Origin: Ginglymostoma cirratum
Taxonomy: Eukaryota
NCBI GenBank assembly: GCA_024137785.1
Contig: JAHRHZ010000062.1
Location: 37,109,434-37,173,433 of the forward strand
Length of the DNA stretch: 64,000 nucleotides
Reading direction: 5' to 3'
Below, piece by piece: positions 6,908-58,050 of the stretch. Within the stretch, counting starts at the first letter, position 1, and each line of letters begins with the position of its first letter. Made by a program: the position numbers and the translations under genes. The notes beneath the pieces were generated by a model. The model ran no database searches, had not been told where the DNA came from, and was given only the letters and a program-made list of their open reading frames with translations.

Positions 6908-8495
6908 CAAAAACAGAAATTGCCGGAAAAGCTCAGCAGGTCTGAGATCATCTGTGGAGAGAAATCAGAGTTAATGTTTTGGGTAAAGTGACCCTTCTTC
7001 AGAACTGATGGTAGCTAGGAAAATGTTGATATTTATGCAGACGATAACATGGGGAGGAGGGACATGTGTAAATGATACAGAGTCCAAAGAGAGATAAAAA
7101 CAGTTGGCCAGACAAAGGAGTGAGTAAAGGCCAGCCTAGGGAATGAATGGATGATAGTGAGGACACTTTGTGGCTGACAATGGGTTGTGTTCAGTTGCAG
7201 TACAAATGATAACAAGGCCTTGTGTATAGAGGCGGGGAAAGACATGGGGAAGGTGTTAAAGCCCTAATATTGTTGAACTCGATATTAAGTCCAGAAGGCT
7301 GTAGAGTTCCCAAGTGGAAAATGAGGTGCTGTTATTCCAGCTTCGCTGGAGCACGGCAGCAATCCTGAGACAGTGATGTTGACCAGAGAACAAGGTGGTG
7401 TGTTGAGGTGTAGGCAACTGGAAGCTCAGTCATTTTTTTGGATGAACATAGGTGTTCTGCAAAGCAGTCACTCAGTCTATGCTTTGTTTCCCTGATGTAG
7501 AGGAGACCACTTTGTGATCAGCAAATGCAGTGGACTAGATTGAGTAAAGTACAGGTAAAGTGCTGCTTCACCTGGAAGGTGTGCTTGTGACATTGGATAC
7601 TGAGGAGAGAGGAAGTAAACGAGCAGATGCTACACCTCCTGCAGTTGTAAGGGAAGGTGCCATGGGGCTTGCTGGGGGCATGCGTTGTAGGGAGTGAAGG
7701 AGGTGTGGACCAGGGTGTCCCAAAGGGAGGAGTCCTTGCAGAAGGTGGACAAGGGAGGGAAGGGGAATATCTATCTGGCAGTGGCATCCTGCTGGACATG
7801 GCAGAAATGGCAGCTAAGGATGTGGATGTTGGTGGGATGGTAGGTGAGGACAAGATGGACCCTATCACTGCTGTGGGAGGGAAGAGAGAGAGTGAGGGCA
7901 GAAGTGCAGGAGATGGGTCGGACCTGGTTGAGGGGCCCGCCAACTACAGTGCTGGGGAACACTCGGTTGAGGAAGAAGGGACATTTTGGAGGCCACCTCT
8001 GGAGTTGGTATCATCAGAACAGATGCAACAGAGATGGAGTGACTGGGAGAATGCAAAAGTCTTTACAGGAAGCAGGGTGGGAGGATGTATAGTCAAGGTA
8101 ACTGTGGGAGTCAGTGGGTTTGTAGTGGATATTGGTGGCCAGCTTATCCCCAGAATAGAAACAGAAATGTCAAGAGAGGAAAGGGAGGAGTCAGGGATGG
8201 AGCAGGGGAAGGGGAGAGCAGAATGGAAATTGGAAGCAAAAATAGGTAAACTTTTCCAATTCTGAACAAGAGAGGAAAGCAGCACTGCTCATGTTATTGA
8301 TATACCAAAGAAAGAGTTGTGGGTGGACGCTAGAGTAGGACTAGAACAAGGAATATTCCATGTATCCCACACAGAGACAGGCATAACTGGGGCATATGCA
8401 GGTACCGATGGCCACCCTTCTCACTTCTTCAACATCCAAGGCCCCAAAGACACCTTCCAGGTGAAGCAGCACCTGCATTTTTCTCAATCTAGCCT
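6908..8495 (-). mobile_element. Penelope-like element fragment (RT C-terminus, GIY-YIG endonuclease, pLTR with degenerate hammerhead) with a short inverted segment
   Basis: ORFs 7518..7943 and 7944..8285 give FASNFHSAL, LDISVSI, HLVLTYHPT and GTFPYNCRRCSIC...FQVKQHFTC. Region 8416-8495 is a + strand relative of about 7530-7615. Confidence 0.85.
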
Positions 8496-8961
8496 AGCTA
8501 CACACCAGCCTAAAACAGAACTATAAATAGTTGACACTGAAAATCCTAGAGCACTCTTTGTAACGGCTCAAAGGCTGCACAACAACTGAAGGACCTCAGC
8601 AATTCAAAAAGGCAGCTCCCAACAGCTTCTCCTGCAATTGGGGATGGGCAATAAGTACTGCCCCCACATCTGAATGAATAAACATTAGTAGTGACAGGAG
8701 GAATAGGGACAATTAGGGACCAACAGGAGCATTTACACATGGAAGCAGGGAGCACTGTTGGAGTATTATATGCTTCGCATCTGTCCTTACAAGGGAAGCA
8801 GATGCTTCCCAGGCCTCAGTGACTGGGAATTCAGCCACTAAAAGGATTTAAAGACTGGGTTAAAGTTAGGTTTGGATTAGCTGCTGGTACTTAAATTTGA
8901 CCAGACACTGGGACCATACGAGATGCATCCAAAGACACTAAAGGAAGAGAAAAGTGGATAC

Positions 8962-9506
8962 TGTTGGATAAGGCTGAAGATAACAGGGCCTGATAAGAGG
9001 CCTAACAATGGGCTGCTTTGTGAATGGAAGTGTGCTAAGAGTTAAAACTGCAGGCACAGATAAGGTATACATTTGGGATTGCTCACATGCACAGTTAAGT
9101 CCAAAGAAGATATACATTTGGACAAAACGTTCAGGACTGGTCACGTGCATGCATAATTCCAAGTAAGGGACGTATTTGGCACAGAGACTTGTGTATAAAA
9201 AGCCTGAAGAAATTCCTTTGTTCAACAACACTTCGCATACTAACGTTGTAAGAAGGTAACCCCCCACCCCCCCCTCAGGAAGTGTGGTGAAGATATCAAG
9301 CAGTTTCAGCCTGGCCAGCTGTGAACTTTCCCAGGTAATAACATTTGGGTTTGGTTACAGAAACCAGGGTAGTGCAAGACAGTAGTTAAAAGTGCATTAT
9401 TCGTTTAAAACCACAATTCATTTATTAAGTGCTTACAGTGCAGACACTTACAGCTGTTGATCTTTGTCTATGTTGTCTAAGTGTTGTCTCTCGGAGACAG
9501 GCAACA
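8962..9506 (+). mobile_element. Probable solo LTR (545 bp)
   Basis: Begins TGTTG and ends CAACA, flanked by atac/ctac (near-TSD). Internal TATAAAAA at 9194-9201. Confidence 0.5.
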
Positions 9507-57500: not shown

Positions 57501-57948
57501 TACTATCCGCCCCTGGTGTATGTTGGAAGGATTTACACATTGAAAGCTGGTTGCATAATGAACACACCATCCTTGATCATCAGGTCTTGACATGGAACTT
57601 GAACCCAGAACTTCAGGTTCACAGGTTGAAGGGCTGGGCACTGCACTCGAAGTGTGAGCATCTTAAATTTAGCAGTAAGCTTACGTACTATCCAATATTC
57701 AACTATATGACAACATTATGACTGGGGGAACGTGTGACACATTTATTAGTATGGTCAGAGCATGTCCAGTGCTAGATGTTTTGTGCTTATGGCATCAATG
57801 TTTCAGCCCAATCTCCTCCAACATCACTGCTGGGCATATCCCGTCCCATCACAGAACAAACACATCGGACGATCTCTCCACTTAAACTCAGAGGTTGTTC
57901 ATTGATGATTGCACAGCATTCAATAACAATTGTGATTCCTCAAATAAT

Positions 57949-58050
57949 AGTTCTGAGGAAGGGTCACTGGACCTGAAACATTAACACTGATTTTCTCTTC
58001 ACAGGCGCTGCCTGACCTGCTGAGCTTTTGCAGCAACTTCTGTTTTTGTT
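57949..58050 (+). mobile_element. PLE-terminal short element with a hammerhead motif (stem III ACGU changed to ACAU)
   Basis: AGTT CTGAGGA A GGGTC ACTG GACCT GAAACAT T AAC plus the shared tail. Confidence 0.8.

Follow-up and report, generated by a model that had tools for sequence, protein, structure and literature searches.

Hammerhead-bearing termini of Penelope-like elements in a shark genomic window: decaying insertions of two subfamilies and a recurrent 5' boundary

The window analysed here is a 64-kb stretch of Ginglymostoma cirratum DNA (contig JAHRHZ010000062.1, positions 37,109,434 to 37,173,433; GC 41%, CpG observed/expected 0.23, 500 N) in which related termini of Penelope-like elements (PLEs) are dispersed. 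We counted 17 such termini and grouped them into 14 insertions according to target-site duplications (TSDs) and geometry. Their common module is a minimal hammerhead with about 65 nt after it, extended in some termini by a tail of about 36 nt. A first-pass annotation had reported about a dozen short elements; the family is real and each of the 11 sites listed then (11/11) carries the described sequence where it had been placed, but the termini are more numerous and not all of the elements are short. We consider it reasonably probable that the 17 end-modules, which belong to two PLE subfamilies (A and B hereafter), represent 14 separate decaying insertions, the short ones being by-products of autonomous PLEs with a defined RNA 5' end.

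A pattern scan of the window with the downstream motif of this family returned 15 matches, against 0.06 expected, and two further arms were recognised by alignment only (40119-40168 on the minus strand and 60366-60432 on the plus strand). A strict descriptor of the minimal hammerhead (stem I of at least 3 bp, CUGANGA, stem II, GAAA, a paired dinucleotide and UH) matched at exactly three places, i.e. 19109-19146 (-), 46991-47026 (-) and 50416-50453 (+), and nowhere in 200 dinucleotide shuffles. The Rfam search of the window gave 18 matches up to an E-value of 5, with no hammerhead among them; matches to microRNA precursors at 9518-9665 and 40127-40248 scored under the gathering threshold and were set aside as fold-back inserts. 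The pattern scan found no match in viral contigs, and its sole match among metagenome contigs (L001), which is without a hammerhead, was attributed to chance and excluded from all counts.

Subfamily A is represented at 6908-8490 (-) by a 5'-truncated, decayed PLE, recognised by tblastn and alignment, which retains the end of the reverse transcriptase (RT), a Cys linker, the GIY-YIG domain and the 3' untranslated region (UTR) and has no tail; its hammerhead (7006-6968, minus strand) shows a G12 to A change and a damaged stem II. A 72-bp inverted match (78%) between 7535-7606, inside this copy, and 8426-8492, at its 5' end, is perhaps an inverted piece at the junction. In subfamily B, an older end at 46204-48810 (-) comprises the tail, a damaged hammerhead (46332-46297) and 3' UTR, and is split by a young insertion; its UTR resumes at about 48754-48810, in a piece whose similarity to the 49478 UTR was equalled by 0 of 300 shuffles and whose similarity to the young UTR, equalled by 57 of 300, is not significant. 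The young PLE (46478-48739), flanked by a perfect 14-bp TSD, is a single insertion with two arms that are 97.9% identical over 564 bp and hold the motifs at 46991 and 48644. Its minus-strand arm carries the RT end, GIY-YIG, the UTR, an intact hammerhead (47026-46991) and the tail, and its inverted arm (48177-48739, plus strand) carries a hammerhead with G12 to A (48644-48679) and no tail. Two N gaps occur in this insert; the 400-N gap at 46528-46927, located at the junction between the 3' end and the tail, has the same 13 bases on each side and is likely a false gap. The copy at 49478-49961 (+) is a 5'-truncated subfamily-B PLE of 484 bp, which starts in the GIY-YIG frame and has a damaged hammerhead (49864-49900), no tail and an 8-bp TSD. 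The earlier description of many copies as non-coding pieces of 100-190 nt does not apply to five of the 11 listed sites (6968, 46297, 46991, 48644 and 49864), which terminate longer PLE fragments of 0.3-2.3 kb; four of the five follow GIY-YIG frames and two also follow RT frames.

These coding parts identify the elements. The minus-strand stretches 47718-48179 and 47297-47617 encode the RT end and the GIY-YIG domain without stops (tblastn). The window peptide matched the GIY-YIG profile with an E-value of 0.0017, weaker than the Pfam cut-off, and its relative P0001, 85-95% identical to it, matches both RVT_1 and GIY-YIG. Among 107 relatives, the closest came from carpet sharks: whale shark (85%) and zebra shark (84%), then bamboo shark (66%). 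The CX2-5CxxC linker between RT and endonuclease occurs in P0001, which is the closest relative, and in decayed form in the 6908 copy; the young copy has an N gap at this place. This linker marks Neptune and Nematis PLEs (PMC8557442), and vertebrates are reported to carry Neptune and Poseidon PLEs (bioRxiv 10.64898/2026.07.22.740005). Judged by the linker and this report on vertebrate clades, the window PLEs would be of Neptune/Nematis type; Poseidon, considered at first, was dropped on the linker evidence. The module lies 3' of a frame for RT and C-terminal GIY-YIG, as at the terminus of an endonuclease-bearing (EN+) PLE. The RT and GIY-YIG frames, the TSDs and the arms bear out the proposal that the termini are PLE pseudo-long terminal repeat (pLTR) ends with minimal type I hammerheads, inserted by the PLE machinery; on every structural feature tested, they belong to the PLE-terminus class.

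A nine-exon cathepsin D-like gene (13373-43113, minus strand, tblastn) has five of the PLE inserts in its introns 1, 2 and 4. It best matches sharks, its exons are 58-100% identical to a zebra shark protein over the tblastn stretches, and together with the PLE proteins it points to a shark host, probably a carpet shark. Two short subfamily-A copies are found in intron 4. The first (16863-17023, plus strand) is antisense to the gene; its stem I starts at 16874 after 11 extra nt, its partial tail is followed by an A-rich run, and its 11-bp TSD has one mismatch. This run (16998-17024), the sole one of its kind among the 14 inserts, may stem from a poly(A) template or be a slippage repeat. The second (19046-19171, minus strand) is in sense orientation, so that its intact hammerhead (19146-19109) lies sense in the intron; it has a 3' end without tail, 17 nt of inverted tail end on its 5' side and a perfect 15-bp TSD. 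The short A copy at 50403-50554 (+), where stem I starts at 50416 after 13 extra nt, has a G10.1-U11.1 pair, a full tail and an 8-bp TSD, and that at 57949-58050 (+) begins at stem I and has two CpG lesions and no tail; no TSD was found for it.

Short subfamily-B ends begin further inside the module. That at 11386-11477 (+) begins in the hammerhead core and has an internal deletion and an 8-bp TSD. Two others lie in intron 2 of the cathepsin D-like gene, both without tail: the one at 21732-21818 (-), in sense orientation, begins in the core (-24 from the cleavage site) and has a 7-bp TSD, and the one at 30045-30130 (-) begins in stem II (-19) and has no convincing TSD. A decayed end at 60366-60432 (+) begins about 4 nt before the cleavage site, with no hammerhead and no convincing TSD. 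Finally, two-armed inserts with the tail on the plus arm only are found at 9519-9710, a fold-back in which both arms begin within the 3' half of the hammerhead (11-bp TSD), and at 40119-40286 in intron 1 (10-bp TSD with one mismatch).

TSDs of 7-15 bp, two of them with one mismatch, flank 10 of the 14 inserts. They are clear or fair at 9519, 11386, 16863, 19046, 21732, 40119, 46478, 49478 and 50403, and the tenth is a weak 9-bp candidate at 6908; weak cases are 6908, 30045, 46204, 57949 and 60366, and TSDs of 7-8 bp could include chance matches. All four two-armed inserts (9519, 19046, 40119 and 46478) have the tail of about 36 nt on one end only. Measured from the cleavage site, the 3' ends form two groups, one at about +60 to +70 and one at about +95 to +105. 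On the 5' side, 12 of the 17 arms start between -34 and +19, one in the UTR and four in coding sequence, and no copy of the 17 termini begins at the cleavage site. Among the eight short B-type arms the 5' ends are scattered from -27 to +19, with none at the cleavage site, and four of the five subfamily-A copies begin at -34, i.e. at the first base of stem I. On the question raised by the first-pass annotation, whether short copies have fixed ends, the window gives a divided picture: the short A copies share a 5' end and have 3' ends at two positions, and the short B arms share no 5' end.

For the four A copies beginning at -34, the upstream flanks resemble neither one another nor the UTR of the long copy, against which 37-395 of 395 random flanks did as well; an extension of the 57949 copy by about 30 nt into the UTR was rejected, as 119 of 395 random flanks score as well. 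In the three of these copies that have a TSD, 11-25 extra bases separate it from stem I and each time include a further AGTT (chance in a random 13-mer, 5.5%). Those of the 19046 copy include the 17 nt of inverted tail end, identical to the 50416 tail at 16 of 16 positions. It seems to us quite unlikely that priming at the 3' module and simple 5' truncation of the cDNA account for all short copies, with the stem I boundary caused by RT pausing, by a splice acceptor or by a hot spot of microhomology. Such truncation is favoured by the staggered B arms, by the many copies that reach beyond the boundary in the sequencing runs described below, by the CAG at which the boundary ends, given that the D. 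virilis intron ends at helix I (PMC4209133), and by the CAGTTC shared by the stem I start and the tail, which are joined there in the 19046 insert. However, only one of the 17 arms starts in the UTR of about 270 nt against 12 within 54 nt, no upstream exon is common to the four flanks or to the loose ends of the runs (agreement 0.35), and an RT moving 3' to 5' would already have opened stem I by this point.

The full minimal hammerhead occurs in 9 of the 17 termini. Its 5' core is unchanged in all nine, and only 19109 and 46991 keep every core position (2/9). These two remain of the three copies announced as intact, but at 50416 the G10.1-C11.1 pair has become G-U. The ascription of core decay to CpG was correct: lesions occur in seven of the nine motifs at the checked core and stem III positions, all within two CpG dinucleotides. 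Stem II had been described as keeping its pairing while loops vary; loop variants do occur, but ACCA, ACCG and ACUG are CpG-decay forms of one loop and therefore give no sign of structural selection. Over the nine motifs, 92% of the cells are paired, and a two-sided change is seen in one of nine pairs; the covariation called for earlier turned out weak, its score being reached by 43 of 500 shuffles. This alignment is compatible with the hammerhead fold and does not show selection on it. Folded alone, the hammerheads gave z-scores of -1.68 to +0.49 versus shuffles. A conserved 3' hairpin is not claimed, since the 3' region with the tail folds no better than shuffles in five of five copies (z -1.63 to +0.06). 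The cleavage triplet is GUU in subfamily A; the two subfamilies first proposed on the basis of GUU and GUC do exist, but the triplet does not separate them cleanly, as 46297 has a B-type body with GUU.

As a separate observation, the cleavage site of subfamily-A copies, including 19083-19116 (-), lies within TTAAC, with a pyrimidine tract, CAG and ATG downstream, and subfamily B is without this arrangement, which we take to be branch-point-like and to resemble a 3' splice site. The start of an open reading frame in the module was considered and is not claimed; read by eye, the A and B tails are not in the same frame.

A distance of 28 kb separates the two intact motifs, the same-strand neighbours of 46991 and 50416 are all damaged, and nowhere in the window does one strand carry two intact motifs close together. 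When the three best motifs were folded freely as dimers, the active dimer did not form. Metazoan minimal hammerheads are reported not to cleave as monomers and to cleave at a low level as dimers (PMC4209133), and one of nine Xenopus dimers cleaved (bioRxiv 10.64898/2026.07.22.740005). Taken together with the state of the motifs, these reports suggest that the dispersed single hammerheads of the window are likely silent. They also bear on the proposal that the short copies form a retrozyme-like non-autonomous family, self-cleaving as dimers and spreading via circular RNA, which we regard as highly improbable. Minimal hammerheads are certainly present, two head-to-tail joints of 94-95 nt appear in single contigs among the 15 joints listed below, and retrozymes have been reported for the sole chondrichthyan genome tested and as PLE derivatives (bioRxiv 10.64898/2026.07.22.740005). 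Against this stand, besides the separation of intact motifs, the dimer folding and the weak published cleavage, the lack of any hammerhead tandem array in the window (the module occurs in none of the eight tandem repeats found), unit ends that are not circular permutations and never start at the cleavage site, the staggering of the B arms, and the lack of any RNA read on either listed head-to-tail joint. For the window loci, this proposal is already largely refuted.

For a genome-wide view, four public sequencing runs were aligned to the long A copy (window 6847-7446) at 80% likeness. In X21, a poly(A) run of which about 24% was sampled, 16,145 of 12,895,792 reads aligned, equally on both strands; in X22, only 36 reads did. 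As 0.99 of the aligned X21 reads continue into unlike sequence, the poly(A) reads on the module are passengers. On the 5' side, 110 contigs in X1 and 682 in X7 stop at 7005 and then enter unrelated sequence (agreement 0.35, median length 255). In both runs, the six loose ends listed per run include no other 5'-side peak of low agreement; 7005 is not among the six listed for X21. The depth over the endonuclease frame relative to the 5' half of the hammerhead is 0.20 (X21), 0.20 (X1) and 0.27 (X7). On the 3' side, 4,307 X21 reads continue at 6908, where the majority letters are those of the tail. Among 15 joints listed, four change strand, as expected of two-armed inserts, and two are the head-to-tail joints, with 0 RNA reads, for which a poly(A) library is a weak test.

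Published work on other PLEs offers a framework for these ends. The anole PLE protein nicks and extends both target strands, its RT starts internally at two sites, which define the tail, and hammerhead mutants insert normally, with no RNA reads ending at the cleavage site (Frangieh 2024, PMC11167929). The window pattern appears to fit this insertion model. Penelope is transcribed from the upstream pLTR, and in D. virilis an internal promoter with initiator and downstream promoter elements (Inr/DPE) lies within the pLTR (PMC2377424), so that, in an element transcribed in this way, the RNA would have the module at its 5' end as well as at its 3' end. Priming at the 3' module would then give long, variably truncated copies, and priming at the 5' module a cDNA no longer than about 100 nt without the tail or 140 nt with it, ending in run-off. 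If the RNA 5' end were set by transcription starting at the first base of stem I, run-off would yield the fixed-end A copies; restarts of copying at the physical end of the RNA could add the extra AGTT pieces, the staggered short arms could come from earlier termination, and the fold-back inserts from priming on both strands. The boundary reads TCAGTT in the long copy, which fits an initiator consensus, and positions +28 to +33 match a DPE consensus at five of six positions. Moreover, four diagnostic sites of the long copy 6968 recur in the short copies 57949 and 16874 and not in the other two short ones; this sharing with a long RT-bearing copy agrees better with autonomous elements giving rise to short copies repeatedly than with a single non-autonomous master.

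Several points weigh against such an origin from the 5' module of autonomous PLEs. No full-length element with a 5' module is present in the window. The 7005 peak lies one base inside the boundary of the window copy (7006). In the 20 nt just upstream, depth still amounts to 0.22 (X21), 0.38 (X1) and 0.58 (X7) of the hammerhead bin, and many copies therefore pass the boundary; it is about 0.03 in the following 20 nt. The fall in depth is moreover confounded by the diverged UTR of the reference copy, and is partly an artefact of it because the coding part further upstream is better covered. Neither X21 nor X22 shows a pile-up of molecule starts or ends, although these libraries could hide a transcription start. 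Parallel change can occur at one of these four diagnostic sites, a CpG, and 57949 is overall closer to 50416 (90/99) than to 6968 (83/99), in a comparison of five sequences only. Finally, the D. virilis transcript starts some 120 nt before helix I, and helix I there begins at an intron end (PMC4209133, PMC2377424), and the start position proposed here therefore differs from the one mapped case.

Unlike products of autonomous PLEs, the fixed-end A copies could also be a self-propagating, non-autonomous mini-PLE of 100-140 nt, endowed with its own internal promoter overlapping the hammerhead and with both RT start sites, and mobilised in trans. We think this unlikely, even though it suits the 5' end common to four of the five A copies, its genome-wide pile-up, the low depth of the endonuclease frame (only 0.20-0.27 of that of the hammerhead), the initiator-like start and the five-of-six DPE match at +28 to +33. 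Precedents also exist, as rotifer pLTRs suffice for mobilisation in trans (PMC3846280) and non-autonomous PLEs are known in Chlamys (PMC8557442). Yet the copies occur both with and without tail and with differing 5' extras, they fall in two sub-groups, one of which includes the long copy, and the poly(A) reads on the module are passengers without a start pile-up. More speculatively, and in our opinion doubtfully, subfamily-A PLEs might transcribe from the first base of the hammerhead, their run-off copy being a complete minimal, non-circular partner similar to a short interspersed element (SINE), re-amplified to about 4:1 over endonuclease-coding copies.

Compared with known systems, the window elements resemble the Neptune/Nematis EN+ PLEs (PMC8557442, PMC3846280) in the RT followed by a C-terminal GIY-YIG, the CX2-5CxxC linker, the heavy 5' truncation, the inverted 5'-truncated arm, the tail of 30-40 bp on one end and the similar length of TSDs. 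They differ in that the window has no full-length or partial-tandem copy and most inserts are <200 bp; the fixed 5' boundary at hammerhead stem I of the shark copies is not described for Neptune/Nematis PLEs in the available parts of these two papers. With the metazoan PLE minimal hammerheads (PMC4209133), the shark motifs have in common a 4-bp helix I, one unpaired base before helix II, the G10.1-C11.1 pair and a palindromic 15.2-16.2, and also an occurrence reported as mostly single and dispersed, 'probably related to truncated PLEs', with some opposite-strand pairs. Helix II is 4-5 bp long in the shark motifs versus 7-8 bp in schistosome families (PMC4209133), subfamily A differs by its GUU triplet, and no shark name occurs in the two supplement files of that paper that were searched. 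The literature searched yielded nothing on shark PLE hammerheads or on a fixed stem I 5' boundary; Repbase, Dfam, subscription papers and Lunse 2017 were outside its scope, and absence from print is not thereby established.

The Anolis Poseidon PAc (PMC11167929) similarly has two 3' end positions one tail apart (about +65 and about +100 here), its insertion on both strands fits the two-armed inserts, and no read ends at the cleavage site in either study. It belongs, however, to a different clade and is known from biochemistry, whereas the shark element is known from sequence, and run-off products of a 5' module are not discussed in the parts of that paper at hand. Non-LTR retrozymes (PMC7229834, bioRxiv 10.64898/2026.07.22.740005) are likewise non-coding, with type I hammerheads and kinship to PLE pLTRs, and dispersed monomers are reported. 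They are described as tandem units of 150-450 bp with mostly canonical hammerheads, expressed as circles, whereas the shark copies are single or inverted, 65-190 bp long, of the minimal type and mostly damaged. In place of the 6-bp helix I and loop-loop contact of canonical type I hammerheads, the shark motifs have a 4-bp helix I and no loop III; the retrozyme definition of the 2026 preprint also admits minimal motifs (bioRxiv 10.64898/2026.07.22.740005).

Other repeats were noted in the window. About six copies of a repeat of about 330 bp with A- and B-box-like motifs at its head occur at 6108-6411, 16231-16560, 38350-38954, 44763-45085 and 59640-59965; we take it to resemble the elasmobranch HE1/V-SINE. 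An RVT_1 Pfam match at 34925-35227 (+, E-value 1.8e-09) adjoins a multi-copy repeat (4635-4985, 27063-27959, 35186-36152 and 36741-37352), and both are probably fragments of long interspersed elements (LINEs). An inverted pair of repeats of about 750 bp, 74% identical, is found at 372-1129 and 63116-63861.

That truncated PLE ends carry dispersed minimal hammerheads has been published for fish, coelacanth, frogs and reptiles, and the basic finding is in this respect ordinary. The fixed 5' boundary matters because it bears on the start of the PLE template, the origin of the tail and of the inverted arms and the role of the ribozyme. The intact sense motif in the cathepsin D intron provides a ready test of the silence of single copies. 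If the boundary is the RNA 5' end, a very large set of genomic copies would record the product of 5'-module priming, uncleaved RNA would be the template in vivo, and the in vitro model of Frangieh 2024 would become testable on genome data alone.

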